DNA of 32,000 bases from Halomicronema hongdechloris C2206 (GCF_002075285.3 NZ_CP021983.2:5070001-5102000), one strand, 5' to 3'. Positions 9,433 through 26,618 are shown, counted from the stretch's first letter. The notes: generated by a model not told the origin, from the sequence alone. Made by a program: numbers and translations.

Positions 9433-9822
9433 TCAGGCCCATATCCGATGAATCGGGTACCGATCAAACTTGTCATCCCTGCTGACAATATCCAACGAAT
9501 TATTCATGGCTTGAACTACCAAAATTCGATCGAAGGGATCACGGTGATCGGGGTGCAGTGGCAGATTCATGTAAGTTTTTGCATCTTCTACCTTTATGGG
9601 TAAGATCTCAGCGTTGATAAAATTCAGTCGAATTAAAATTTCGTCAAACGGTGAGGTTAACTGCAGTTTTCCAATATTCAACTTGATAGAGATTTCCCAC
9701 AAGCTAGCAATACTGAAGAATAGGTTCTCTTTAGCGTCAATGATGTCTCTAGTTGTGCTAGTCAGTCTTGGGTCAGAAGCAAAGTACCAAAGTACAGTAT
9801 GGGTATCTAAAAGTACTGCCAT
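9433..9822 (-). CDS. vapC: type II toxin, PIN-domain VapC family
   Basis: LLDTHTVLW (first PIN Asp), SLWEISIK, HRDPFDRILVVQA and VSRDDKF match the PIN acidic quartet layout. Its ATG immediately follows the antitoxin stop (TAAATG). Confidence 0.85.
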   Translation of the reverse strand: MAVLLDTHTVLWYFASDPRLTSTTRDIIDAKENLFFSIASLWEISIKLNIGKLQLTSPFDEILIRLNFINAEILPIKVEDAKTYMNLPLHPDHRDPFDRILVVQAMNNSLDIVSRDDKFDRYPIHRIWA

Positions 9823-10080
9823 TTACATGTACTCGACTAAGTCATCTAACGGTTCATCGAAGTCATCGGACATAGTAATCTGATCTGCCAGACTGCCATA
9901 CCCATATCGTTTTTCAGCCTCTTCCTCAGTGGAATTAGCTAAGTCCTGCCGCAATTCATGCAGAGTGTCCCCTGCGCTTTTCAGATGCTTTTCCAAGAGA
10001 AACTCAATGTAGTGCAGCACTTCGGCTTGCATTGACTCAGGTAGCGCCTCTAGCTTTTCTAAAATCACGGGTTTTACCAT
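9823..10080 (-). CDS. DUF2281-type antitoxin
   Basis: ILEKLEALPESMQAEVLHYIEFLLEKH is typical of DUF2281 antitoxins paired with VapC. ATG at 10080 lies 8 nt after a perfect AGGAGG (complement of 10089-10094). The track's 10083 start is a GTG one codon upstream. Confidence 0.7.
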   Translation of the reverse strand: MVKPVILEKLEALPESMQAEVLHYIEFLLEKHLKSAGDTLHELRQDLANSTEEEAEKRYGYGSLADQITMSDDFDEPLDDLVEYM

Positions 10081-10243
10081 CACTCTTTCCTCCTAAGCCC
10101 GAGCAAAGAAATAGATCCGTCTGTCCAGCCAAGACGTTGAGTGAGACTTTTTTTCATTATCGCCTATCTTCCAAGTCCCCCAGGTTGGTGAGACAAGGGC
10201 CGGGGGACGAAAAATAAAACATTGAGTCTCTACATAACATCAG

Positions 10244-12235
10244 CTAGAGCTGAATGATAGGTGCAAAGAGGCTTTGGAGCCGTAGCAGTTGCGCCCCCCT
10301 CAGGTAGAGCAAGTCGCCTTTGCCCAGCAGGTTGACGGCTTCTCCCTGTTTACCTCCCAGGATAATGGCGGAATCGGCTGCGCTGGCGGTTCTGAGGGCA
10401 ACGCGACCGGGTAAGTTGGAGCGAATCAAGGGGGTAACTACCTTGGCATCGGGTCGTTGGGTGGCGATGATCAGATGAATACCGGCAGCGCGGGCCATGG
10501 CCCCGAGTCGTTTGATGCTTTGCTCTAGAGCCGTGCGACTGTCTTTTTCAGCCATGAAGTCTGCATATTCGTCGAATATGCAGACAATACGAGGCATAGG
10601 AGAGCTGGCTTGTTGGTTATAGCGGCTGAGGTCGGAGCAGCGATTCTGTTCGAAGCGCTGATAGCGATGGTCCATTTCGTCCATGAGGGAGTCCATCAGT
10701 GCGATCGCACCCTCGGTATTTTTAACAATGGGCTGGCGCAACCAGGGAATGGTCTCAAATTCCGGGAAGGTAACTCGCTTGGGGTCCACCAGAGCAATCT
10801 GCAACTGCTCGGGAGAATGGCGCACCAGTAGGCTGAGTAGAAGCGATCGCAAGAATTCACTCTTACCACTGCCAGTGGTGCCTCCCACCAAAAAATGGCA
10901 GGTATTGGGATCGGACAAATCAGCTTCCACTAGATTGCCTTCCAGGTTCACACCAATGGCAATCTGTACCGGAGCAGTGACGGGCAGCTTTTGGGGCGTT
11001 ATGTACTCGTTAAACTGGGCGGTTTGCCGATCGGGGTGGGGTAAATCCACACTGACATAGCCCGCCTGGGGAGCAATCATGGGCGGAGCCGTGAGACCCA
11101 ATTGCACCCGCAGATCGTCAGTTAGCCGCAGGATAGAGTTGACCTTGACCCCTAATTGAGGTTTCAATTTCACCCGCAAAAAGGCCGGGGCCAGGGCCAC
11201 CCCCTGCAGGTCTACACCCACCCCAAAGGACTCCAGGGTACGGACCAGATGGGCCGCGATGGCATCTACTTCTACAGTGGGGGACGTGGGCTTAGGCTCA
11301 GGCGGCTTCGGCCCAGGTGGCGGCGGTGGCGGTAACTGGCCTGGTTGAACCGGTGGCACTGTTGCTTGGGGCTCGAAATAGGTCTGACATTTTTTGAATT
11401 GCGGACAAATATTACAGAGCTCCAACTGCACCGCTTTCGGTGGTGGTTCCCCCTGATGGGGCTGCCAGGCTAACCAATCGCGGATTTGTTGCAACTTTTG
11501 GGGAATCAGCTGATGCACCGCCGCTTCTAACTGCTGCCAGGAATAGATCTGCTCTTGCCAGTCTGGCAGCACACTATAAACAGCAGAATCAATGGGCACA
11601 CCAATTTTTTCCCGTAGCATATAGCCATAGAGGGCTACCTGGGCCAATTGGGCCGAGGGCTCTGGCGATTGATAGGTTTTGTACTCCACCACACAGAGAC
11701 GGTGCTGCGCGAAGTCATACACCAGGCTGTCAAATTGGCCTTGCACAAGTTGATGGCTGCCATCGGGGAGGGTGAACTCATATTTGACTTTCAATTCCTG
11801 GGCTATGAAGGTCTTGGCAATCACCTCTTTTGGACTGCAGAAGCGGCGATTGCTCACCAATAGTTGCGCCCATCGCCGGATCAATCCCTGCAACCCTTGC
11901 CACAGTTGATGCAGGGCCTGGGCTTTACTAGGGTCTTCAGCAATCGCCCCCTGCAAGTAGGGAAAAAAGTGGCTCTGATAGAGCCGTTGCTGCAATTGCT
12001 GGGCAATGCCTTCAACGTCAAGGGTTTGCGCCTCTGGAGTCAAGAGATGCTGGAAGGTCGGTTCTGAGCGCAACTGCTTGACAAACTGGTCTGACAGCTG
12101 ATGAAAGATTTTGCCAATGCCTGTGGGACCTGCTGCGGGCAAAAACATGGTCATGCCACCGAAGTGATGCCCCAGATACAACAGGCGGGGACACTCAAAG
12201 GCAAGACGAATTTTACTGACACTGAGGGAAGACAT
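10244..12235 (-). CDS. Cas4-like 4Fe-4S PD-(D/E)xK nuclease fused to an FtsK/SpoIIIE-type DNA translocase motor
   Basis: N-terminal domain: SKIRLAFECPRLLYL (first Cys), QGQFDSL (Asp), VVEYKT (ExK), QVALYGYML (QxxxY) and CNICPQFKKC (Cx2Cx5C). A PPPPPPGPKPPEPKP linker follows. The FtsK alpha/beta motor has Walker A VGGTTGSGKSE, Walker B IVCIFDEYADF and IIATQRPD. I see no TM helices and no gamma domain. I set the start at ATG 12235, which overlaps the upstream stop as TAATG. Confidence 0.85.
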   Translation of the reverse strand: MSSLSVSKIRLAFECPRLLYLGHHFGGMTMFLPAAGPTGIGKIFHQLSDQFVKQLRSEPTFQHLLTPEAQTLDVEGIAQQLQQRLYQSHFFPYLQGAIAEDPSKAQALHQLWQGLQGLIRRWAQLLVSNRRFCSPKEVIAKTFIAQELKVKYEFTLPDGSHQLVQGQFDSLVYDFAQHRLCVVEYKTYQSPEPSAQLAQVALYGYMLREKIGVPIDSAVYSVLPDWQEQIYSWQQLEAAVHQLIPQKLQQIRDWLAWQPHQGEPPPKAVQLELCNICPQFKKCQTYFEPQATVPPVQPGQLPPPPPPGPKPPEPKPTSPTVEVDAIAAHLVRTLESFGVGVDLQGVALAPAFLRVKLKPQLGVKVNSILRLTDDLRVQLGLTAPPMIAPQAGYVSVDLPHPDRQTAQFNEYITPQKLPVTAPVQIAIGVNLEGNLVEADLSDPNTCHFLVGGTTGSGKSEFLRSLLLSLLVRHSPEQLQIALVDPKRVTFPEFETIPWLRQPIVKNTEGAIALMDSLMDEMDHRYQRFEQNRCSDLSRYNQQASSPMPRIVCIFDEYADFMAEKDSRTALEQSIKRLGAMARAAGIHLIIATQRPDAKVVTPLIRSNLPGRVALRTASAADSAIILGGKQGEAVNLLGKGDLLYLRGAQLLRLQSLFAPIIQL

Positions 12236-14235
12236 TAGGGAGTCACGTAGCAAATTAACTGTGCTTGACGGCTGGCACGGGGATCTAAGACTTGAATCCG
12301 ATTTTCCTGGCAAAGGGCTTCAATCACCTGATCGATCTCTTGCTCACTGAGATCTGGGAATTGCTGCTGAGTACTTTCTATCAACACCATGAGCCCAATG
12401 AAGAGTTGAGTTGTCATGAGATTGAGGACATATCGTCTCACTTCTTCTAAAGGGGGTGGCGGTGGATTACCGGTTACAAGCTGCAATTTCTGGAGTAGAG
12501 GGCATTGTTCGAGCACTTTAGATTGGCGGACAAAGGATTGCAGATCCTGGAGATGGGGAGTTTTTTGATCGATCACTAATTCGCCAGCCCGGGCCGCATT
12601 CGCGAGCTGGTGGTAGGTTTCCAGGTACTGAAGTGAGAGTAAGTCAGGCTTTATGTGGATACAGTTAGCCCGACTATCGAAGATTTGACGATAGATTTGA
12701 TGACCTTTATTCTTCGCTTGTCCTACCCCCTCTGCTCGGATCAAGAAAAGATGATCGCAGAACTGGTTGGTGACCATTTTCTGGCAGGACTTCATGATGT
12801 GATAGAAGGACTGCATGTTGGGATCTTCGCTCCAAACGATGCCAGTACGATTCGATTTTTGGTAGGACAGGGAATAGGAAGCATAGGTGCTGCTCTGAAG
12901 AAATTGAGAGGTGATTTGGGGTACTTCTAGGGCCTCGAGAGCTTGCCTAAGACGCCAGATTAGCTCGGGGGATGAGAATTGATTAATTCGCATTACCTTC
13001 TGACGGACACTCCTAAACTCTTTATCCCAGGTAAGCTGGAAACTTGCTAATTTCTGCTCGCCAGTTCCCTGTCCATTATCGCCATCACCCTTCACCTTGT
13101 CTGGCGGAAACTTAGGCATTCGGCCATGCTGTTTGTAGTAGGTAATGAGCTGTTGGCCCAGCTTAAGCACGTTACGCGGTAGGGCTTTTTCCCCTGGAAA
13201 TTGATGTTTTAACCAGTTTCGAGTCAAGGGGGCGATAGGACTTTCTGGCTCAGGTCTGGCTTGGGCATGGAGAGGAGCCAAACGGGTAGCCCATAGAGCG
13301 GCGGCCTGGTCTAAGTTGATTTGGCGAAGCTGTAAAACTTGGTTGATTCGAGCTTTGTCGGCAGGTTGAATAGTATTTCGATTGGCTTGCCAGGTACTGC
13401 TGACAACACTAATGAGCACCAAGAAATTTTTGAGATTTTCATTGTGAATGGTAGAGTTTAGGTTAAATAGGCTCTGGAGATCAGGTTTGCCGTTTGGAAG
13501 TCTTGGAATACTGTCTAAGTTGTCAAAGCAAAGTACAATGGGCTGAGTGGAATCTGCAATTCGCCCAATATTGCCCAATATTTTCTGGGCTGCATCTTCT
13601 GAGGTGATGGACTTGCGAACTTGAAGTTTCTGGAGATCTTCCTTGTCAAGATCATCCCCCTTCAGCCAGGCATAGGCCAGCATTCTAAGATCAAAATTGG
13701 TGGCCAGATCATAGAGGACGCCAAAGAATTCCTTGCCATTGTAAATGCCAGCAGGAAAACTGGCTGCCAAATCACGTACAAAAGTTCCCCTTTCTCCCAA
13801 TATCCACTTGGTAAGAGAGCGATTGCGTAAGCTAGGAAGGCTTTTTAACCACAGTAAGAGTTGAGACTCTGATTGGCCTTCTGGTACGTGAATCAGGCTG
13901 TCAATGGTGTTGCGGAGCGTGTGACGCCATAGATAGTTGCTGTCGGGCCAAGGTCCAATATAAGCAAAGAAAGCTTTGTTGTTTAGCTGACGCTTAAGGC
14001 GACCGAGTAGATAACTCTTTCCTGACCCTGATGCTCCTGCTAGGAGAATGGTCCGAGTAATGTGATCAACGGTAATTTGATTTATAGTTTGTTCAATTTC
14101 CTGGAGAATTTGCCAATGGATGGCATCAACAACCAGGTTGGGATCTTGATTTTCTTGCCAGAAGTTTCCAGGTCTAAAAGTGCTGGGATCAAAGGGGTTA
14201 AGATTTCTTTTGACTAATTGTTTGAGCGAAGTCAC
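12235..14235 (-). CDS. AAA+/STAND-like P-loop ATPase with C-terminal winged-helix-like domain (Orc1/Cdc6-like layout)
   Basis: Walker A LLAGASGSGKSYLLGRL, Walker B IVLCFDNLD and sensor-1-like LVLISVVSST, with a long helical region and a C-terminal wHTH-like tail. GTG start, 666 aa. It is noticeably more AT-rich than its neighbours. Confidence 0.8.
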   Translation of the reverse strand: MTSLKQLVKRNLNPFDPSTFRPGNFWQENQDPNLVVDAIHWQILQEIEQTINQITVDHITRTILLAGASGSGKSYLLGRLKRQLNNKAFFAYIGPWPDSNYLWRHTLRNTIDSLIHVPEGQSESQLLLWLKSLPSLRNRSLTKWILGERGTFVRDLAASFPAGIYNGKEFFGVLYDLATNFDLRMLAYAWLKGDDLDKEDLQKLQVRKSITSEDAAQKILGNIGRIADSTQPIVLCFDNLDSIPRLPNGKPDLQSLFNLNSTIHNENLKNFLVLISVVSSTWQANRNTIQPADKARINQVLQLRQINLDQAAALWATRLAPLHAQARPEPESPIAPLTRNWLKHQFPGEKALPRNVLKLGQQLITYYKQHGRMPKFPPDKVKGDGDNGQGTGEQKLASFQLTWDKEFRSVRQKVMRINQFSSPELIWRLRQALEALEVPQITSQFLQSSTYASYSLSYQKSNRTGIVWSEDPNMQSFYHIMKSCQKMVTNQFCDHLFLIRAEGVGQAKNKGHQIYRQIFDSRANCIHIKPDLLSLQYLETYHQLANAARAGELVIDQKTPHLQDLQSFVRQSKVLEQCPLLQKLQLVTGNPPPPPLEEVRRYVLNLMTTQLFIGLMVLIESTQQQFPDLSEQEIDQVIEALCQENRIQVLDPRASRQAQLICYVTP

Positions 14236-14263
14236 AAGCAGCCACCATTCTCTTGTACTGCGA

Positions 14264-15091
14264 TTAAATTAGGCTAATAAAAAATAAATTCCCGCCAATA
14301 TGTTGGGGGATCCCTGCTGCTAATTCAGCGTCACTATAGGTGGATACATCCTGGAGTGTGTCTAGTTCGATGCGATCGCATCGCTGCAGCTCGTAGAGCA
14401 TGGCATCCAGAGCTTCCCGGGTAAGGGGAGGCTGCAAGGCCTGACGCAGATGGAAAATAGGCAGATAGTTGTCGGTGCCTAGCTGTCGATCGAGTTGGCG
14501 AATGGTCTCTAGCACAGCCTCTGGGGTTATTGCATCGGCAGTTGTAGATGCTGAGGCGACTGCCCCTTGAGTGGTCGCCAGGGTTTGGCGCAAAAAGGTG
14601 GCATAGTGGCCTATCATCGCTGACGTCATTAGGAGAGAGGAGTTTGTAGGTGTGTACTCCTGTAGCAAGTAATGTCGCCCCTCGGGAGTAAGCCAGACCT
14701 CCTTGATTTGTGTCTTAGTCGCTTGAATCATACCCCGTTGCTGCAATTGGTGTAGCAACCGCTGGCGCTCGCTAGGGGGAACCTGCTTTGCCTGCCCCGG
14801 TGTGGCTGACTTGGTCGTAGCGGCTCTGACTAAAGCCAACTCATCCGGGGTCACTGGCAGCACGCTGGTGTCTTGGTTAAGTAGGGTTTTGCCAGCCCGG
14901 GTAATGCGATAGCGCTGAATCTCTTCGATATAGGCCACCAATCCTTTGCTGGTCAGGGCACGACAGGCTTTATCCCGTTCGCTAGCCTTTGTCTTAGAAT
15001 TAGGCTGAATTTGACTGATGAGGCTGCGATAGTCAGGTGGGTACTCCAACAAGCGCAGCAGGAACTTTTGTTCTATCGAATCTAACTCCAT
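14264..15091 (-). CDS. protein with three winged-helix-like modules (putative DNA-binding component)
   Basis: Two internally similar modules: ERDKACRALTSKGLVAYIEEIQRYRITRAGKTLL and ERQRLLHQLQQRGMIQATKTQIKEVWLTPEGRHYLL. A third lies at the C-terminus (LTREALDAMLYELQRCDRIELD). It is the first gene of the operon, 28 nt upstream of the ATPase. Confidence 0.6.
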   Translation of the reverse strand: MELDSIEQKFLLRLLEYPPDYRSLISQIQPNSKTKASERDKACRALTSKGLVAYIEEIQRYRITRAGKTLLNQDTSVLPVTPDELALVRAATTKSATPGQAKQVPPSERQRLLHQLQQRGMIQATKTQIKEVWLTPEGRHYLLQEYTPTNSSLLMTSAMIGHYATFLRQTLATTQGAVASASTTADAITPEAVLETIRQLDRQLGTDNYLPIFHLRQALQPPLTREALDAMLYELQRCDRIELDTLQDVSTYSDAELAAGIPQHIGGNLFFISLI

Positions 15092-15186: not shown

Positions 15187-16260
15187 CTACGATGACAATG
15201 ATTCCGACGGTGGCGGAAACACGGCGTCGAACTCCGCCAGGCTGGGTTCCTGGCGGGGCACCTGATTCAGCTGGTGGCGAATGCGGGAAATAGTGTCGTA
15301 GACGGCGCGGCGGGTGCGGTTGATGCCGCCCAGGGGCCGATGTTCCGGCAGGGCGTGCCAGGGGCTGTAGGAGAGATTTTCACAGAAGGCTGCCTGCTCT
15401 GAAGACTCGAAGGATTGAGCCGCAATGGTGAGGGTGGCCACCTTCTGCAGAGGTGCCCACCAGCGAATGCGGGGGTCTTCCACCGGCATTTTCACCGGGT
15501 CGGTCTGGATCTGCACGTAGAAATCGAAGCCGGCACTGTGGTCCTGCAGGTGCGATCGCATCCGTTCCCGCAGATAGTCCCGGGAGCGAAAGCCCAACCG
15601 CCGCCAGAAGCCCCCCTCCCGGTTAACTTCATGGGGAATGGCCACATATTTCACTGCCCTCTCCCCCAGGCGATAGGGGGTCATGCTCCAGTACTGGACC
15701 TCCAAGGGACTGTGGATGGTCTTCAGGCGAATCCGCAGGGCGATCCAGAGCTCCCGCCAGCGCCACCGCAAGGGATTAAGGCCGGTTAAAAAGAATCGAA
15801 TCGGATTGCGGCTCTGGGTGCGCTCGATGTCGCCGAAAAATTCCACATAGTCCTTGGCGTCCCGCACCGGAAACACCGGAAAATCCACCAACAGAAAGTC
15901 ATGGGTGCGGGCCTCTTGTTCCCCCTCTAGAATCTTCTGTCCTGGGACTTCAAATAACTTCAGGGCCATGCCATGGGCATCCCCCTTGGCATCGTCCTTG
16001 ACGCTGAAGTTGGAGTAGCGAATACAGACCGGAAAGGTCTGCCCCGGCGTTTGCAACACCCCCAGCCGCAGGGCCGGATCCTCAGGCAGGTGCGGATCTA
16101 CCTGGAAACTGCCCCGGACGCAGCCATGGCCCTTGGGATGCTCTCCCCGCTTCACCGGCGGCTGTTTATTCAGAATCCGCTCACTGATATCGGTGACCGC
16201 CGCAATGGCCGCGGCTTCATCCGGCGGTATCTGTTCTTGACCAAGGGCTGGGGCAGGCAT
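15187..16260 (-). CDS. catalase-related heme protein (mini-catalase, cAOS-like size class)
   Basis: KRGEHPKGHGCVRGSF matches the catalase distal RxxHxKG motif. RTRRAVYDTISRIR fits the proximal Tyr/Arg motif. At 357 aa it is well short of a full catalase. Confidence 0.7.
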   Translation of the reverse strand: MPAPALGQEQIPPDEAAAIAAVTDISERILNKQPPVKRGEHPKGHGCVRGSFQVDPHLPEDPALRLGVLQTPGQTFPVCIRYSNFSVKDDAKGDAHGMALKLFEVPGQKILEGEQEARTHDFLLVDFPVFPVRDAKDYVEFFGDIERTQSRNPIRFFLTGLNPLRWRWRELWIALRIRLKTIHSPLEVQYWSMTPYRLGERAVKYVAIPHEVNREGGFWRRLGFRSRDYLRERMRSHLQDHSAGFDFYVQIQTDPVKMPVEDPRIRWWAPLQKVATLTIAAQSFESSEQAAFCENLSYSPWHALPEHRPLGGINRTRRAVYDTISRIRHQLNQVPRQEPSLAEFDAVFPPPSESLSS

Positions 16261-16284
16261 GGCAACCTCCAGGGAGTGAGGACA

Positions 16285-17749
16285 TTAGGGAGCATTGGCG
16301 AGGAACCGCAGGGACTTGAGGCTGGGCAGCAAGAAATAGCCGCCGCCCCGCATGGCCACAAACCGAGGTAAATTCAGCAGGCGCTGGCGCACCGGGCAGC
16401 GGGGAATGGTCATGGTGCCGGTGCCATCGTTGTCGCCGATCAGGGGGTCCTTGTTGTCATAGAGGCCATTGAAGCTGGGATCGTTGGCCCAGGTCTGCTG
16501 CACAAACTCGAATTGGCGGCCGATGTCGGCATTGAGGCAAAAGAAATGCAAGCCCCGTAGCTGACCGTCGTCTTCGATATCCAAGGGCAGCTTGCCGGCC
16601 TCGATGTCATCTAAGGGAAACAGGGGGTCGCCAAACAGGCTGCCCCGTCGCAAGATTCGATGGCGGCTAGAGGTGGTAACCGATCCCTCACCGGGGGCAT
16701 CCAACAGGGAATCGCGGGGGTGGGTGCGGCGGATGTGGGCTCCCATGGGGCAGCGTCGGCCATCGGCGTCTTCGGCCAGATAGGCAAAGGCATTTTTATC
16801 CGGCAGCTGGGGATTATCCTGCTCGGGGGCCAGGGTCAGGGGGGTGCCGCTGGGCCAACGCCCTACGAATTTGGCGGCAATCAGAGCCATGGCCTCGGGA
16901 TCAGGGGTGCCCTGGTCATCTACAGTTTGGGCGGCGATATAGCGCCAGAAGCCGGCCACATCCTGAGCTAGTTTGCGGTAGACCAAGAAGCTGCCATTGT
17001 GGCCGAAGTCTTTCACATCGGGCAGTTCCGTGCCGGGAAACGGGGGCAGTAGACTCTCGGGATCGGCTGGGTTGGGCACTACCGGCGTGATCGGCAAGAT
17101 GCCATAGCCATCCGGGTAGCCCAATAAAACTTCGCCGATGGCAACGGTGTTCTGGGTGTGGCGGCGAGGCTTACTGAGGCCTTCAATATCCGGTTGGGAG
17201 ACGCTGTCGTTGAAGCCGAAATGTTCCTTGAAGCTGGGCAGGCGAAATCCTGTTTCTTCCCTCACCAGAGTGAGGCCGCTATCAGCCTGCGATAACAGCT
17301 GCTGTCGGTAGGCGTCAAGGCGCTCGGGGCTGGGGCCGTGGAGCAGCACGATCACGTGGATCGGGGGGCCGCTGGTACCGCCGAATTCCCATTGGTCGGG
17401 AGCGCTGGCCCGGTATCCCCCAGAATCTCAGCCCGCTTCGGCTCGGCCAGGCCTTCGGTGAACTCTCGCGGGCAGGTGTTGAGGGCCGTCTCCACCAGGC
17501 CATAGCCACCAGACCGGCATGGGTGAAGGCCAGGTTGCAGGTGACCTCGGGCTTGATGGTGCTGCCGTCAGGCTTTTGCGGCCAGGGTTTGGCCGTGGTC
17601 ACCTCGGGAATCACCTGCCGCAGCCAGGCTTTGGCCCCGGCCCGGTCGGTGATCGTCAGGAGGCCATAGCTGGTATAGAGGAGGTGGCCAAAGCCACTGA
17701 GAACAATGCCCTGGATATCCTCGCGGTCCGGTGGGGTCAGGTCTGTCAT
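16285..17749 (-). pseudogene. DyP-type peroxidase interrupted by two 1-nt frame changes
   Basis: DyP motifs present: HFGFNDSVSQP (GxxDG-like), GAHIRRTHPR (proximal His) and ILRRGSLFG (distal Arg). The N-terminal ORF (from 17749) turns into Arg/Pro-rich nonsense after ...THAGLVAM. A plausible sequence continues in a second frame (GLVETALNTCPREFTEGLAEPKRAEILGDTGP, about 17490-17410) and then a third (SAPDQWEFGGTSGPPIHVIVLLHG...). Confidence 0.7.
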
Positions 17750-17797
17750 GGGGATAGTCTGGATGGGGGTAGACGATTATGGAGCCTAGTCGGGGAC

Positions 17798-19009
17798 CTA
17801 CAGTCGACTCAGCCAGGTCTCGACCTCTGGGCGCTCGAGCTCATCAGCCAGGGGTTGCACGATGGTGCGATCGCGCAGAATAGTCGCCACGGTGGCCTCG
17901 GGATAGGCCCGATAAAACACCTGGGAGGGCAGTTGCTGGTCATTGCGGAAAAACTGCTTGAAGGCGACGATATCCACGGCCCCGGCCTGGGGATAGCCTG
18001 CCACGTTGTTCCAGATGGAGTTGAGGCCATCGCTGGCCCGGTCGGCAAAGTCGCCCAGGTAGTTGTCGAAGGAGCCATCGTAATGGGTGACAAACAGCAG
18101 ATGCTTGCCACCATCGACGATGGCCCAATGGGCGAAGTGAATGGAGCGAATATTCGAGAGGGACCCCGGCGGAAACAGATTGCGGGCGGCAAAGTGAATC
18201 AAACACAGCACGATGCGCAACCGCAGCAGGCGGCCCCGCCTGACGGTGGACAGCAGATGCAGATGGTTGATGCCGTGCACCACTTCCGGTCGCTGCAGGG
18301 TGCGCAACCGCTCGAAGTCGACGTTGACACCGATATATTCCCCGGCCAGGCGCTTTTTCTCAGGGGCGCCCAGGATGCCGCCGACGAACCGCAGAATCCG
18401 CAGGATAATCTGCCGGATCAGGTGGCAAATGCCGCCGATCAGCCGCTCGATCAATTGCCAAAACCTGGCCCCCACTAAAGCTAGGGCCTGCCACAGGGTC
18501 AGGGGCCGCTTGAGGCTGAACAGAGCATTCAGCAGGGGTTTCAGCCCCGGCTGATCGAGGTAATCGGCGACGGTGTCCTGGTCTAGCAGATCTTCTAGGG
18601 TGCGGCGAATCTGGAGTCGCTTGCGAATGCTGCCTACGGTCTCTCCCTGGATGGCGATGTAGGCGGCCTGAGCCCGGCAGGAATGGGCCTTGATGAAGGA
18701 CTCAAAGGACGCTCTGCCGCCATAGCCGTCGCACTTACTCCAGAGGGCATCCATGTCGGGGCTGAGGCTGACCAGTTCTTGCAGATAGGCGGGTAGGCTG
18801 CCGTCGTAGTTGCCGGTCATCAATAGCCGTTGGCCGTACTCGGGGTCAGCGATAATGGCCAACCGCAAAAAGTGGGTCTTCTGACTCTTGGCAATCTGCA
18901 GGTAGGGGTTGCCGGTCAGATCCGTTGCGATCGCATCTAAGACCTGGCGCAGAGCCGGCTCCTCTCCAGAGCGGATGGGAGCAATCACGGTCAGGGGTTG
19001 GTTGGCCAT
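17798..19009 (-). CDS. hypothetical protein with internally duplicated DyP/chlorite-dismutase-like alpha+beta barrel halves
   Basis: The two halves share a motif pattern: THFLRLAIIAD..LLMTGNYDGSLPAYLQELV versus IHFAHWAIVDGGKHLLFVTHYDGSFDNYLGDFA. I set the start at ATG 19009 (MANQPLTVIAPI). It lies 48 nt upstream of the DyP gene. Confidence 0.6.
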   Translation of the reverse strand: MANQPLTVIAPIRSGEEPALRQVLDAIATDLTGNPYLQIAKSQKTHFLRLAIIADPEYGQRLLMTGNYDGSLPAYLQELVSLSPDMDALWSKCDGYGGRASFESFIKAHSCRAQAAYIAIQGETVGSIRKRLQIRRTLEDLLDQDTVADYLDQPGLKPLLNALFSLKRPLTLWQALALVGARFWQLIERLIGGICHLIRQIILRILRFVGGILGAPEKKRLAGEYIGVNVDFERLRTLQRPEVVHGINHLHLLSTVRRGRLLRLRIVLCLIHFAARNLFPPGSLSNIRSIHFAHWAIVDGGKHLLFVTHYDGSFDNYLGDFADRASDGLNSIWNNVAGYPQAGAVDIVAFKQFFRNDQQLPSQVFYRAYPEATVATILRDRTIVQPLADELERPEVETWLSRL

Positions 19010-19198
19010 GCCGACCTCAAGGGTGGGGATAGAGACTGGCTGGGAACACAGGCTGCTACCCATTAGTATTGACGCCACACCGGAGAAGTCAAGAGAACTT
19101 AATGGTTTTTTGGCCAAAACTGCCAGAAACCCCCAGATTTTGTTGGCCTAGCCCACACAAATGTTGGATCTCTTCAAGAAAAGCAATATCGCGTTCAA

Positions 19199-22637: not shown

Positions 22638-25600
22638 GTGGCCCTGTTTGAGCAGAGTGCCGCCCACTGGCAGAGCCAACCCGATGCCCCCCAGGCGGCC
22701 CTGAAGCGGGGGCTGGCCCTGTTTTACCTGGGGCGAGCCCAGTACTTCATCGCCGACAACGCCAAATATCGCCAGCCGGATTGGGCCAGGGCCGTGACTC
22801 CCCTGCAGGAGTGTCTGCGGGTGTTCGACCAGGCCGGTCGACCGGATCTGGTGGCCCAGGGCATCACCCAGCTAGAGCGCACCCTGCGCCGGTTAGCGCG
22901 TTGGGATGATTTGCACGAGCTGGCCCAGCGGTCCCTGGCCCTGCACCAGACCTATGGCCCCCCCAGCAAGCTGGCCCAAGACTATGGCCATTTGGCGGCT
23001 GTGGCCCTGCAGCAACACCGCTGGCCAGCAGCGGCGGCGTATGCCCGCCAGGCCCTCGACACCCTGCCCCCCCGCCCCAGCAGCTGGCGCATTCTGTTTC
23101 TCAAGACCCTGGCCAACGCCGAGTATGCCGCGGCAGAGGTGGCCGCCGCTACAGAGCATCTGCAAGCCGCCCGGGCTCTGGGGGTGATGGAGCATCCCAA
23201 GCTCTACAGCGATGTGCTGGCCTTGCTGCAACAGTGCCTGCGAGATCAGCGGCAGTACCTAGAGGCCTTCACCATCAAGCGGCAACGGCTGGCCATCGAG
23301 AAGCAATACGGCCTGCGGGCCTTCATCGGAGCCGGTCGGTTACGGGCCCAACGCACGGAACAGCAGGCCACGGTGCGCTCAGAGCCCCAAACCCTGGAAG
23401 ACATCGCCCCGGAAATCACTGCCTCCGGCCGCTCTCGCGATCTGAACCAGCTGCTGAACCGCATCGCCGGCAAGACCCACAAGTTGCTGGTGCTCCATGG
23501 CACCTCCGGGGTGGGGAAAAGCTCTCTGGTCAATGGCGGTCTGCTACCGGCCCTGCAGGGTCGGGCCCTGGATAACCGCGACAACCTGCCGGTACTGATC
23601 CGCCAATACACCGACTGGCCCCAGGAACTAGCCACCCGCCTAGACCAAGCCCTGGCCCTGCTCCCCGCTCCCCGCCTGAGACCACAATCTCTCCCCTCCC
23701 CTGCCACCGATCCCACCCCTCGCCCCCCTGCGACGTCCCTCAGGGCAAACTCGTCACTCGCCACTCGTCACTCGTCACTGCTTACCACCCTGCGCCGGTG
23801 CGAAGCCGCCACCCTACGGCCGGTGTTCATCTTCGACCAATTCGAGGAATTCTTCTTCGCCCACAGCGATCCCCTGGCCCGCCGCGACTTCTTTCAATTC
23901 ATCGCCGACTGCCTGGAACTGCAACCCAGCGCCCTCAAGATCGTCTTGTCCCTGCGGCAGGATTACCTGCACTACCTGCTGGAGGCAAAGCAACTGGTGC
24001 GGCTGAACCAGCTAGCCGAAGGCTCCATGGCCCGCTCCCAGCTGGAAGACATCCTCGGGAAACAGGTGCTCTACGAAATCGGCAACTTTGCCCCCGCCGA
24101 TGCCAAGGCCATCATCCAGCAGCTGGCCTCGGGCTCCCGCATATTTCTGGAACCGGCCCTGATCGACGCTTTGGTGGCGGATCTGGCCGGTCCCCTGCAG
24201 GAGGTACGCCCCATCGAGATGCAGATCGTCGGGGCCCAGCTGCAGACGGAGGGCATCCAGACCCTGGACCAGTATCGCCACCTGGGGGAGCAGCCCAAGG
24301 AGACCCTGGTGCAGCGCTACCTGGAAGACGTGGTCATCGACTGCGGCGAAGAAAATCGCCAGCTGGCGGAGTTGGTGCTGTTTCTGCTCACCGACGAACG
24401 CGGCACCAGACCCCTGAAGACCAAACCGGAACTGCTGCGGGACTTGGGAGCCTTGGGCATCCCCATCACCCCATCACCCCTAAGCCCTCCGGGCAGGCTC
24501 CGCCAACACCCCATTACCCCATCACCCCCCCACCCCATCACTCCCCCACCTGCGACGAATGCCCAAGACGACAACCTGGATCTAGTACTGCGTATCCTCT
24601 GCGGCTCCGGCATCGGCATTCACTTGCCCGATAGCCCGGATGATCGCTATCAGCTGGTCCATGATTATCTGGCTGGGGTGATTCGAGAGCATCAAGCCCC
24701 TCGATTAGAGGCGCTGATGGCAGAACTGGAGGAAGAGAAGCGCAGACGGCTGGAAGCAGAATCTGAAACGTTGGTGCTGACAGAAGCCAACCGCAAGGCA
24801 AGACGACGACTGTTCTGGAGTTCAGGATTGCTAGCCGCTTCCCTGGTTGCAGCTCTGCTAGCAGGTACTTTTGCAGGTACTGCAACTAATAAAGCTAATC
24901 GAGCAGAACAGGAACTTATCGCCAAGGAACAATCGGCTCAAGATGCTGAGATAAGAGAACGAGAAGCAAGAGCAGAACTAGAACAAGCCGAAGCCGAAGC
25001 CCAACAAGCTGCCAGAGATCTGACACGACTAGAAACTCAAGCAAAGATTTCTGAGCAAGAAATTGAAGCAGCTAGGATTCAGTTTGCTCAGCTTGAGCAG
25101 AAAGCTGCGACAACTCAGCGAAAAAATCAAGAAATCCAGGAAGACTTAAATAGGGCTACATCAGCCATTCAAGAGATAGAAAGTGAGCGGGAGAGATTAA
25201 TACAAGAGCAAGAAGCTCTTATTAAGCGTGAAAGACAGATTCGCAATGATCTTAACATCTCGCAGGAGGAGCTAGAGTCTATTCAAAATGAGCTGTCTAG
25301 TAGTCGGTTTCAGTTAGAGGAGATAGAAAATGACTTGGTTGCCAATATATCTGAGGTCTTAAAACTCACCAGAGAGCAAACTAGTCATGAGGTTACGCCA
25401 GCAATTCTCTATGTGAACTTTGCACCTAAAAAGGACTTCCCGCAAGGAGATGAGGACTATAGTTTAACACTTTGGCTGATCACTTATGATGGTCAATCTA
25501 TCAAGGAAAACATTGATTCAGTGACTCAAGAAAAAGTCCTTTTGGCCATTGACAATATTCAACGAGGATATCGAAGGCGTGACTTAAAGGTCCTAGAAGA

Positions 25601-26492
25601 TCTATACGAATGGATGATCGATCCTATTGAGGGCAACCTAAGGGATTTAAATATAAACAATATAGTTTTTCTGATGGACAAGAGTATAAGAGGAAGGATT
25701 CCAATAGCAGCACTCTATGATGGAGAGAAATTTTTCGTTCAAAAATATAGTTTTGGATTGATGCCAGGATTGACTTTGTCTGACGCTAGATATGTCGACT
25801 TAAGACAATCTGGCTTACTTCTAATAGGCATAGATGCTTTTGATGAATATCCAGAGCTAGCTTTAGGTCCAATACCATATGTCAACTTAGAAATCGATAG
25901 ATTGTCAGAGATTTGGGTGGACAAGACAGTCCTGCGAGATCAAGATGCTAACTATCCTAATGTTCTGAGTGTTAGAAGGCGCAAGAATCACCAAATAGTG
26001 CATATTGCTACCCACGGAGGATCTCTGGCGAATCGAGACAATTTACCTCAACTGGTTCTATGGGATAGAATTCTGACTCCACAAGATATATCTCCCCAGG
26101 ACTGGTATAGTCCACCAGTTGACCTATTAGTATTGAGCACCGGAGAATTGGGTCTTGAAAGAGGAGAATATAAATTTGGAATCGCAGGTGCTTTTCTCAA
26201 TGCAGGTGTCAAATCAGTTATCGCAGACTTGTTCTATTCAAGTGATTCTCTATATCCCGAATTAATGGCAAGATTTTATCAAAATCTACAAGTAGCCCCA
26301 ATCAGGGCTGAAGCCCTGCGAAGAGCTCAATTGTTCCTTCTTAGAGAATTTTTAAATGAAAAAGTTGAGTACGAAAGAGAATACAATAAGGGTTCTTTTA
26401 CTATAGAAGAAAGTTTAACAGTCGAAGAAAGTGATATTAGAAATATTGAGGCTTGGGGTGCGGGAATTACAATCATTGGAAATCCTTGGTAA
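22638..26492 (+). CDS. large multidomain protein: TPR-like helical region, nSTAND-type P-loop NTPase, Pro-rich linkers, one TM helix, ~170-aa coiled coil, CHAT (caspase-like) domain lacking the catalytic Cys
   Basis: 1284-aa open frame. Walker A LVLHGTSGVGKSSLVNGGLLPAL (about 23509-23532) and Walker B VFIFDQFEEFF. TM segment LFWSSGLLAASLVAALLAGTFAGTA (about 24810-24884), then an E/Q/R-rich heptad-like stretch. The CHAT-like C-terminus has VHIATHG (His codon 26013-26015), but LLVLSTGELG sits where CHAT domains have LSAC (Gly codon 26142-26144). Confidence 0.8.
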   Translation: MALFEQSAAHWQSQPDAPQAALKRGLALFYLGRAQYFIADNAKYRQPDWARAVTPLQECLRVFDQAGRPDLVAQGITQLERTLRRLARWDDLHELAQRSLALHQTYGPPSKLAQDYGHLAAVALQQHRWPAAAAYARQALDTLPPRPSSWRILFLKTLANAEYAAAEVAAATEHLQAARALGVMEHPKLYSDVLALLQQCLRDQRQYLEAFTIKRQRLAIEKQYGLRAFIGAGRLRAQRTEQQATVRSEPQTLEDIAPEITASGRSRDLNQLLNRIAGKTHKLLVLHGTSGVGKSSLVNGGLLPALQGRALDNRDNLPVLIRQYTDWPQELATRLDQALALLPAPRLRPQSLPSPATDPTPRPPATSLRANSSLATRHSSLLTTLRRCEAATLRPVFIFDQFEEFFFAHSDPLARRDFFQFIADCLELQPSALKIVLSLRQDYLHYLLEAKQLVRLNQLAEGSMARSQLEDILGKQVLYEIGNFAPADAKAIIQQLASGSRIFLEPALIDALVADLAGPLQEVRPIEMQIVGAQLQTEGIQTLDQYRHLGEQPKETLVQRYLEDVVIDCGEENRQLAELVLFLLTDERGTRPLKTKPELLRDLGALGIPITPSPLSPPGRLRQHPITPSPPHPITPPPATNAQDDNLDLVLRILCGSGIGIHLPDSPDDRYQLVHDYLAGVIREHQAPRLEALMAELEEEKRRRLEAESETLVLTEANRKARRRLFWSSGLLAASLVAALLAGTFAGTATNKANRAEQELIAKEQSAQDAEIREREARAELEQAEAEAQQAARDLTRLETQAKISEQEIEAARIQFAQLEQKAATTQRKNQEIQEDLNRATSAIQEIESERERLIQEQEALIKRERQIRNDLNISQEELESIQNELSSSRFQLEEIENDLVANISEVLKLTREQTSHEVTPAILYVNFAPKKDFPQGDEDYSLTLWLITYDGQSIKENIDSVTQEKVLLAIDNIQRGYRRRDLKVLEDLYEWMIDPIEGNLRDLNINNIVFLMDKSIRGRIPIAALYDGEKFFVQKYSFGLMPGLTLSDARYVDLRQSGLLLIGIDAFDEYPELALGPIPYVNLEIDRLSEIWVDKTVLRDQDANYPNVLSVRRRKNHQIVHIATHGGSLANRDNLPQLVLWDRILTPQDISPQDWYSPPVDLLVLSTGELGLERGEYKFGIAGAFLNAGVKSVIADLFYSSDSLYPELMARFYQNLQVAPIRAEALRRAQLFLLREFLNEKVEYEREYNKGSFTIEESLTVEESDIRNIEAWGAGITIIGNPW
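23751..23778 (+). repeat. heptamer array TCGTCAC x4 (reverse complement of the GAGTGAC arrays) inside the CDS
   Basis: Read directly. It is translated as SSLATRHSSL within a Pro/Ser-rich linker. Confidence 0.9.
24461..24550 (+). repeat. octamer arrays CCCCATCA / CCCCATTA / CCCCCACC inside the CDS
   Basis: Read directly in two blocks (24461-24480 and 24509-24550). They encode PITPSP...HPITPSPPHPITPPP. The complement GGGGTGAT occurs at 28840-28859 and related units at 581-640. Confidence 0.85.
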
Positions 26493-26618
26493 ATATTGTT
26501 TCTTAAGCTTTCAATCCTATCAACAGACACCCTATCTGTCCGGATCATCTCGGAGTATTGAGTGATTTGACCCTCTGTACAGGACAAAAGCTTGAAGGGT
26601 AGATAGGAAAAGGGTTTC

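Follow-up and report, generated by a model that had tools for sequence, protein, structure and literature searches.

An RcaD/RcaG-type operon of Halomicronema hongdechloris that encodes a nuclease-FtsK fusion is a probable cyanobacterial member of the Orc/CDC6-coupled capture systems

Orc/CDC6-coupled "HerA/FtsK capture systems" were described in silico by comparative genomics in 2024 (PMC10853773, Nucleic Acids Res), and the same capture model was restated in 2026 (PMC12839542). The parts assigned to these systems are an Orc/CDC6 ATPase, an active restriction endonuclease (REase), a HerA/FtsK motor, which in one set carries an FtsK-alpha domain taken from cellular forms, and a separate protein with 2-4 winged helix-turn-helix (wHTH) domains, with fusion to a 3'-5' exonuclease as an option. 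They were predicted to have an anti-invader role in which the Orc/CDC6 protein positions the apparatus on DNA, and selfish DNA undergoing segregation, transfer or packaging is intercepted by the pump. The class has no formal name, and the main text of PMC10853773 mentions neither cyanobacteria nor RcaD/RcaG. Here, we analyze a three-gene operon on the minus strand (positions 15091 to 10244) of a 32,000-nucleotide stretch of Halomicronema hongdechloris C2206 DNA (NZ_CP021983.2:5070001-5102000, hereafter the window), which very probably belongs to this class.

Two of the three gene families had been named earlier. As summarized in PMC2799420, RcaD of Calothrix/Tolypothrix PCC 7601 was purified as a protein that binds the cpc2 promoter (Noubir et al. 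2002), rcaG lies directly downstream, is co-transcribed with rcaD and encodes a putative ATPase with a presumed supporting role in DNA binding, and both proteins are reported as regulators of phycobiliprotein operons in chromatic adaptation. The Halomicronema operon shares with this pair from Calothrix (Tolypothrix/Fremyella) PCC 7601 a gene of the wHTH family followed, in the same order, by one for a putative ATPase, but the PMC2799420 summary makes no mention of a downstream nuclease-FtsK gene or of an Orc/Cdc6 nature of RcaG. The assignment of genes 1 and 2 (designated D and G, with gene 3 designated K) to the RcaD and RcaG families is well supported but indirect, orthology being judged by sequence through Nostocales proteins that bear the name. 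Among the 516 homologs of gene 1, one is called "Transcription factor RcaD" in UniRef, while NCBI gives the name "transcription factor RcaD" to D at four of the five Nostocales D-G-K loci looked up (Scytonema hyalinum, S. tolypothrichoides, Rivularia and Calothrix CCY 0018; the fifth, L070, carries no name). Gene 1 is 34-43% identical to the Nostocales D-G-K proteins over the full length, and the D-G gene order agrees with the published rcaD-rcaG order. The architecture of the trio is thus not new, since it was described in silico in 2024 and genes 1 and 2 were named in 2002. What is new here is the identification of RcaD/RcaG as components of a capture system, a description of how large the cyanobacterial clade is, of its vertical conservation and of its stable surroundings, a G::K fusion in Limnochordia, and arrays of D/G paralogs with ParA/ParB-like genes in Oscillatoriales.

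The operon consists of three co-directional genes, at 15091-14264, 14235-12235 and 12235-10244 in the open reading frame (ORF) list of the window, and all three products match proteins of H. hongdechloris C2206 with 100% identity (locus tags XM38_048350 and XM38_048360 for operon proteins). Gene 1 (D; 14264..15091, minus strand) encodes 275 amino acids (aa) from an ATG start, gene 2 (G; 12235..14235, minus) encodes 666 aa from a GTG start, and gene 3 (K; 10244..12235, minus) encodes 663 aa from an ATG start. Direct reading of the sequence gives FISLI-TAA at the end of gene 1, an intergenic gap of 28 nt between this stop codon and the start of gene 2 (14236..14263, minus), and then GTG-ACT-TCG (MTSLK); the gene 2/gene 3 junction reads GTG ACT CCC TAA TG TCT TCC, a TAATG stop/start overlap. 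The tight packing noted in an earlier model-generated reading of this DNA (hereafter the first-pass annotation) was therefore correct down to the gap length and the overlap. The GTG start of gene 2 agrees with the consensus N-terminus of its family. For gene 3, the mechanical ORF reaches a TTG at 12313, but its homologs begin at the ATG, with the consensus SLSVTKVRVAFECPR. Because the same gene order is found in dozens of other genomes, it lies far beyond a chance arrangement of ORFs. A promoter/terminator consensus scan gave a result no different from shuffled sequence.

Gene 3 encodes a nuclease fused to a DNA pump, as its ORF, Pfam matches and homolog alignment indicate. Pfam placed PDDEXK_1 at aa 3-279 (5e-13), FtsK_alpha at aa 319-399 (4.5e-9) and FtsK_SpoIIIE at aa 422-595 (1e-40). 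The Cas4/AddB-type PD-(D/E)XK nuclease with its 4-Cys cluster spans aa 1 to ~290 (11366..12235, minus) and also matched Cas4 hidden Markov models (HMMs; 3e-7); a proline-rich linker, visible in the translation, leads to the FtsK-alpha domain (11039..11281, minus), and the FtsK/SpoIIIE motor extends over aa 422-657 (10265..10972, minus). In an alignment of 34 homologs from many cyanobacterial orders, the nuclease residues C15, D169, K186, Q199, Y203, C274, C277 and C283 were invariant and E184 was present in at least 90%, while the Walker A motif GGTTGSGKS and the Walker B residues D555 and E556 of the motor were all invariant. This conservation of catalytic residues in both halves across the family indicates that both activities are under selection.

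Gene 3 shares with canonical FtsK/SpoIIIE and SftA the alpha and beta motor domains and intact Walker motifs, and like SftA it would be soluble. It differs from canonical FtsK in lacking a transmembrane anchor (no segment predicted; maximum Kyte-Doolittle 19-residue window 1.31) and the gamma, KOPS-reading winged helix (no FtsK_gamma match in Pfam at E up to 0.1), and in having a nuclease as its N-terminus; it scored 148.5 bits against the FtsK equivalog NCBIfam NF007615, whose cut-off is 1566. Thus, gene 3 encodes a soluble nuclease-pump fusion rather than a canonical FtsK. With CRISPR Cas4 it shares RecB motifs and what appears from sequence to be a 4-Cys Fe-S cluster pattern (C15, C274/C277/C283), but it reached only 28.6 bits against TIGR00372 (cut-off 65), and we found no cas genes among the scanned flanking ORFs and no Rfam matches in the window. 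In PADLOC, the motor matched the C-terminal part of the model for the defense protein SspH (3e-67). Many K orthologs (~750-940 aa) carry an additional N-terminal 3'-5' exonuclease domain (PF01612), among them those of Nostocales, Chroococcidiopsis/Gloeocapsopsis, Coleofasciculus and Lyngbya; this domain is absent from Halomicronema gene 3. We also considered whether gene 3 could be called "the" cyanobacterial FtsK and rejected this as a general statement, since the family is apparently missing from model strains. The FtsK-like genes listed for three model strains are of the HerA/YjgR type or the plasmid gene all7666, and the gene 3 nuclease domain had no match on Anabaena plasmids in PLSDB.

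By sequence, gene 2 gave only sub-threshold AAA_16, NACHT and KAP matches in Pfam (aa 57-245), and profiles of genes 1 and 2 gave no meaningful match when compared by sequence with PDB chains. The AlphaFold (AF2) model of gene 2 was of high quality (predicted local distance difference test, pLDDT, 89.7; predicted template modeling score, pTM, 0.90), and its best PDB matches in Foldseek were archaeal Cdc6 (1fnn, E 5.5e-6), eukaryotic ORC subunits and Cdc6, archaeal Cdc6/Orc1-DNA (2qby) and TnsC. These structural matches, together with the Pfam matches and the secondary structure of the model, delimit an AAA+ core and lid at ~aa 41-370 (13126..14115, minus). Within it, the Walker A motif is GASGSGKS, with G67, G70, G72 and K73 invariant in the family, and the Walker B motif is atypical, CFD(N/Q)LD, with D238 invariant, which suggests that RcaG may be a slow, switch-like ATPase. 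A middle alpha/beta domain of four strands plus helices follows at ~aa 392-560 (12556..13062, minus), with W468, E470 and R500 invariant, in the position between AAA+ core and wHTH where PMC10853773 puts an inactive restriction-endonuclease-fold insert. The C-terminal tail at ~aa 595-663 (12247..12453, minus) is winged-helix-like, with a helix-helix-helix-strand-strand order in the model, in keeping with the overall Cdc6/Orc1 matches.

The AF2 model of gene 1 (pLDDT 90) comprises three tandem winged-helix units, at ~aa 1-72, 82-145 and 190-275, plus a long helix at aa 157-179. Its Foldseek matches were all to winged-helix proteins (RPC34-like tandem winged helices, the ScpA C-terminal winged helix, MarR and the ORC winged helix), although none reached E 0.001 and Foldseek found no whole-chain structural relative. 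The gene 1 product is presumed to be the DNA-recognition subunit. Taken together, the models, matches and conserved residues bear out the domain content given in the first-pass annotation, namely a triple wHTH protein, an Orc1/Cdc6-like AAA+ ATPase with a wHTH tail and a Cas4-type nuclease::FtsK motor fusion, and its logic of DNA reader, NTPase and nuclease-motor holds.

Set against the capture systems, the trio shares an Orc/CDC6 AAA+ protein with an extra domain before the C-terminal wHTH, a REase-fold nuclease with intact predicted catalytic residues together with an FtsK-alpha-bearing motor, and a separate, rapidly evolving multi-wHTH protein (D is the least conserved of the three). It also shares the fusion of a 3'-5' exonuclease to the motor in some members, though not in that of Halomicronema, and the variable splitting and fusion of polypeptides, here G::K in Limnochordia. 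The setting differs, in that PMC10853773 reports "mobile gene neighborhoods" whereas the cyanobacterial clade looks vertical and is stably flanked. DndFGH and SspFGH, restriction modules linked to phosphorothioate, resemble the trio in that a P-loop ATPase and a DNA reader with several wHTH domains accompany a large protein that has both a nuclease and a HerA/FtsK-type motor. However, gene 2 is not DndF/DptF (14 bits for DndF; 12.7 for NCBIfam DptF against a cut-off of 50), gene 1 has no DndG or DUF4007 match, and the motor protein has ~660-900 aa here compared to 1500-1800 aa there; moreover, the neighboring ORFs scanned in the window included no dnd or ssp modification gene. HerA-NurA, the HerA-effector pairs (Sir2-HerA, DUF4297-HerA) and RecBCD/AddAB likewise couple a ring-shaped or processive double-stranded DNA (dsDNA) motor to one or more nucleases, and AddB has the same AddB/Cas4-type Fe-S nuclease fold. 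The motor here, in contrast, is FtsK-type with an alpha domain rather than a HAS-barrel HerA or an SF1 helicase; it carries its nuclease in cis, as a fusion, and the Orc/Cdc6 ATPase and triple-wHTH protein are additional obligatory partners.

Homologs of genes 2 and 3 were abundant, with 1153 and 1035 cluster representatives, respectively. Among the 120 matches listed for each, identity to the query was 48-71% for gene 2 and 59-82% for gene 3, all organism-named entries were cyanobacterial, and all gene 3 homologs had the same architecture. An exhaustive HMMER search with gene 2 recovered a compact family of ~60 full-length clusters at 50% identity, followed by a sharp drop in score to relatives at 25-33% identity. 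Gene 2 relatives were present in at least 423 stretches (one genome per species), and the best 80 were all from cyanobacteria: relatives of Nodosilinea/Phormidium tenue, Leptolyngbyaceae, Phormidesmidales, Elainellaceae, Oscillatoriales, Coleofasciculaceae, Chroococcidiopsis/Gloeocapsopsis, Pleurocapsales-type taxa, Nostocales and Pseudanabaenales.

Linkage was assessed by clustering the ORFs of 83 loci fetched with 6-kb flanks. D directly preceded G at 76 of the 83 loci and K directly followed G at 41, with K present anywhere in the fetched stretch at 46. In one genome where K seemed absent, it lay 6.9 kb downstream of G, beyond seven unrelated genes, and the apparent lack of K is due in part to the 6-kb limit of the flanks. 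The gap between G and K ranged from -19 to +232 nt in 34 clean trios, all of them from other genomes. Across 35 clean trios, mean pairwise identity rose from D (0.48) through G (0.52) to K (0.63), and the three proteins diverged in a correlated manner (pairwise distances, r = 0.76-0.88). The clustering of G and K was taxonomy-like.

Evidence from outside the cyanobacteria ties G and K more closely. In Carboxydochorda subterranea/Limnochordaceae (Bacillota), a single 1348-aa protein combines AAA_16, PDDEXK_1, FtsK_alpha and FtsK_SpoIIIE (L083, 7129-12047), and across nuclease and motor its C-terminal part shares 32% identity with gene 3. The C-terminus of a 288-aa ORF just upstream aligns to the C-terminal winged helix of RcaD at equivalent positions (hhalign probability 80%, E 1.5e-5). 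This fusion argues strongly for joint action of G and K, and the co-occurrence elsewhere that the first-pass annotation had proposed to look for is thereby seen in linked form (D-G and G-K, at the counts given above) and in fused form. Downstream of the Limnochordia fusion are methyltransferase and glycosyltransferase genes. In other distant relatives of G, the ATPase is fused to a DndH-type motor or a NucS-type nuclease; such relatives occur in Thermodesulfobacteriota, Planctomycetota, Bacillota and archaea, with a patchy distribution outside cyanobacteria.

Synechocystis 6803, S. elongatus 7942 and Anabaena 7120 apparently lack the family. According to PMC2799420, a 2009 BLAST search with an RcaD homolog returned only six cyanobacterial genomes, and none of Synechocystis, S. 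elongatus, Anabaena 7120 and N. punctiforme is on the list given there. The system is thus widespread across orders without being a core locus of essentially all cyanobacteria, and its dispensable, patchy appearance fits an accessory function. Table 2 of PMC2799420 contains a second, more distant filamentous-cyanobacterial pair, an All4300-like protein followed by an ATPase 23% identical to RcaG, with members Lyngbya majuscula 5335/5336 and Anabaena all4300. This pair suggests that further RcaD/RcaG-type modules exist.

An expanded form of the locus occurs in Oscillatoriales (Laspinema, Microcoleus, Oscillatoria), as an array of D-G-G, ParB-like and ParA-like genes on the opposite strand, and then a second D-G with K (L035, 2800-13563; also L032, L037, L041, L042 and L067). 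The three G copies of these arrays fall into separate paralog clades, and the N-terminus of the ParA-like protein resembles the HSDR_N restriction-enzyme domain.

Gene order, domain identities, conserved catalytic residues, co-occurrence, co-divergence and the gene fusion are direct observations, and the domains suggest how the parts could work together. The RcaD-like triple winged-helix protein, the fastest-evolving part, would recognize a DNA feature or site. The RcaG-like Orc/Cdc6 AAA+ protein may serve as an ATP-dependent matchmaker or loader, by analogy with ORC/Cdc6 loading MCM and with TnsC linking a target selector to a transposase, and would recruit or assemble the soluble FtsK ring on the chosen DNA. 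The motor would then pump dsDNA past its own N-terminal Cas4/AddB-type Fe-S nuclease, leading to cutting or degradation, and the 3'-5' exonuclease present in many lineages could also act on the pumped DNA. In line with the prediction in PMC10853773, the most likely target would be foreign DNA that is invading or replicating, be it a plasmid, a conjugative element or a phage genome.

We judge an anti-invader DNA-capture function to be moderately favored. It draws on the domain identities and conserved catalytic residues, the tight operon here and elsewhere, the linkage and co-divergence of the three genes, the Limnochordia fusion, the fusions of more distant G relatives to a DndH-type motor or a NucS-type nuclease, the agreement with the capture systems of PMC10853773 in one feature after another, the SspH-like motor and the patchy distribution. 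Other results weigh against it. Some concern context: flanks are conserved within cyanobacterial orders, so that at least eight species of Phormidesmidales have the order ffh (SRP54), an N6/N4 DNA methylase, D, G and K, beside a housekeeping gene, and several Nostocales species have two glycosyltransferases, D, G and K, with a ParA-like gene after K in four. Gene 3 homologs retain the identity given above across orders (59-82% among the matches listed), unlike a mobile defense island; only 1 of 72,556 plasmids carries the system; and no gene 2 relatives were found in phage records (INPHARED) or IMG/VR contigs, the phages having only generic FtsK motors. A mobile, defense-island-like neighborhood was accordingly not seen in cyanobacteria, where the locus looks vertically inherited with stable flanks. 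Other adverse results concern the parts: PMC10853773 relates its wHTH proteins to DndG/SspB/FokI, but gene 1 had no match to any of these, or to DUF4007, by HMM or within the top 50 Foldseek matches, and hhalign gave no signal between the gene 2 middle domain and the gene 3 nuclease profile, so that a REase fold for this domain is a candidate only. Our literature search found no experiments on any member of the capture class, and the sole published functional data on the family, those on RcaD/RcaG from 2002 as PMC2799420 summarizes them, concern promoter binding and not defense. Finally, PADLOC-DB v2.0.0 gave no whole-system match, only domain-level ones (the SspH C-terminus, mad8, Cas4 and weak PtuA/DndF); NCBIfam and PHROGs gave no system-level assignment either, with generic wHTH, FtsK and exonuclease families in PHROGs. 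The inability of the first-pass annotation to map the trio to a named system therefore holds as regards PADLOC, but not as regards the literature, given the 2024 description and the RcaD/RcaG names. Its appeal to an island or defense context is weak, in view of the order-stable flanks including ffh, the near lack of plasmid copies, the lack of phage copies and a VapBC neighbor (described below) that does not recur.

Defense and domesticated DNA maintenance are both live readings, the former being the one we lean toward and the latter rather doubtful. On the latter account, the trio would be a housekeeping DNA-maintenance machine with a vertically inherited chromosomal function, either a RecBCD/AddAB- or HerA-NurA-like processor of double-strand ends or a device for clearing surplus or trapped chromosome copies in polyploid cells, with RcaD providing sequence-specific loading or regulation on host DNA, perhaps as Chi or KOPS do. 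This possibility, which we rate as unlikely on balance, gains from the high conservation and taxonomy-like clustering of G and K, from the order-level conserved flanks beside ffh or glycosyltransferase genes, and from the near absence on plasmids and absence in phages. The Cas4/AddB-type nuclease, the 3'-5' exonuclease of many lineages and the dsDNA motor resemble a two-nuclease end-processing enzyme, and large-genome cyanobacteria commonly lack RecBCD (PMC5101192) and lack canonical membrane FtsK (PMC7766704). A ParA/MinD-family ATPase gene is also a recurrent neighbor, at 24 of the 83 loci (e.g. L001, 11420-12349; L002, 10628-11485), on either side of the trio and in both orientations, in Nostocales, Chroococcidiopsis/Gloeocapsopsis, Coleofasciculus and Oscillatoriales, where a ParB-like gene occurs too; the Halomicronema window contains no ParA-like gene. 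RcaD itself was purified as a binder of specific host DNA sites, as PMC2799420 relates. However, the system is not universal: Nodularia carries it, while its close relatives Anabaena 7120 and N. punctiforme are not among the 2009 BLAST matches reported in that paper. Homologs in other phyla are patchy and fused to defense-type modules, D is the fastest-evolving component, as expected of a conflict sensor, and the tandem duplication of G and D in Oscillatoriales is more typical of diversifying recognition.

The two accounts can be combined, although we regard the combination as tentative and somewhat improbable: an ancestral anti-invader capture system could have been domesticated in cyanobacteria into a chromosomal DNA-maintenance machine that is loaded at host sites by RcaD through RcaG. 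In polyploid cells that have neither RecBCD nor a canonical FtsK, its role might then be processing of the RecBCD/AddAB or HerA-NurA kind, or the control of chromosome copies. The "transcription factor" RcaD would be the site-selector of a nuclease-translocase, and the Oscillatoriales tandem paralogs with their ParA/ParB-like genes would reflect several replicons or classes of site.

Halomicronema hongdechloris is a light-acclimating cyanobacterium, and NCBI and UniRef naming ("transcription factor RcaD") points to a further possibility, that RcaD as a factor and RcaG as its ATPase cofactor coordinate phycobiliprotein operons in light acclimation, the role put forward in 2002, with gene 3 a mere neighbor. 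The purification of RcaD on the cpc2 promoter and the co-transcription of rcaG, as given in PMC2799420, agree with this role, but gene 3 overlaps gene 2 by TAATG, K adjoins G at 41 of 83 loci across all orders, and gene 3 co-diverges with D and G. In addition, the nuclease-FtsK is fused to G in Limnochordia, which are non-photosynthetic and have no phycobilisomes, and an Orc/Cdc6 ATPase coupled to a nuclease-translocase is no transcription-factor architecture. Transcription as the primary role is thus strongly disfavored, and we consider this reading highly unlikely.

The alternative offered by the first-pass annotation, a remnant of an integrated plasmid or integrative and conjugative element with a TraB-like FtsK for dsDNA transfer and an Orc-like initiator, can be rejected as the least credible of all, for although FtsK-family motors drive Streptomyces-type conjugation, the GC content of the operon lies below that of its flanks and one intact copy sits on a 328-kb plasmid typed as conjugative, gene 3 scored only 45 bits against plasmid_TraB (NCBIfam NF041214, cut-off 800), the scanned window flanks contain no integrase, relaxase or replication genes, a single plasmid in 72,556 carries the trio, the chromosomal flanks are stable within orders, and a conserved nuclease fused to the pump is hard to square with the transfer of intact DNA. 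The sole plasmid copy found, on pPSE7367.01 of Pseudanabaena sp. PCC 7367 (L082, record 190629-195588), is an intact, overlapping D-G-K set; its neighbors are an IS21 element and a DEAD/DEAH helicase with a SWIM zinc-finger protein.

Should the capture model hold, the operon would represent a defense or DNA-surveillance mechanism in which an ORC-like loader and a sequence reader place a dsDNA pump that feeds a fused nuclease. The re-reading concerns an annotation that is 20 years old, since RcaD and the ATPase RcaG apparently make up two of the three parts of a nuclease-translocase system, and it matters both for how the chromatic-acclimation regulator is interpreted and for the transfer of the RcaD name in genome annotation. 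Most cyanobacteria have neither RecBCD nor a canonical FtsK, and a conserved soluble nuclease-FtsK therefore bears on the fate of broken, surplus or foreign DNA in their polyploid cells, and possibly to the poor transformability of some strains. A practical experimental entry point is offered by the cyanobacterial clade, which is large, chromosomal and well conserved and is present in culturable strains including Fremyella/Tolypothrix, in which an rcaD mutant has reportedly been made.

Several features of the neighborhoods stand apart from the trio itself. The N6/N4 DNA methyltransferase gene of Phormidesmidales (PF01555, 4e-46) lies directly upstream of D, beside ffh and ~1 kb upstream, at L012, L015-L019, L023 and L025; it may be a case of conserved synteny or a modification partner. 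In the window, a VapBC-type pair lies directly downstream of gene 3 (9433-10083, minus), with a PIN toxin at 9433-9822 and a DUF2281 antitoxin at 9823-10083. We rejected VapBC as a component of the system, as no such family recurred in the 83 loci; with the pair absent beside the trio in the other 82, the adjacency looks coincidental. The mosaic base composition noted in the first-pass annotation is, like the VapBC neighbor, real, with a GC content of 46-55% in the operon against ~62% in the flanks. Rfam and tRNA scans of the window found nothing, and the signature of a tRNA-flanked island is thus not seen in it.

Upstream of the operon, the region 15187-19117 (minus) contains three ORFs with a GC content of ~60-62%: one that is weakly catalase-like, below the Pfam cut-off (15187-16260), and two that are long and have no Pfam match (16285-17355 and 17798-19117). 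Further along the window, on the plus strand, the gene at 22638-26492 encodes a 1284-aa protein with an nSTAND1 domain (novel STAND NTPase 1, 2e-25) and a C-terminal CHAT caspase-like protease (4e-36). The GC content drops to 38-40% at ~25000-26500, compared to ~60-65% just upstream, and the nSTAND1-CHAT gene looks like a separate gene of the conflict or programmed-death type with a foreign-looking 3' part.

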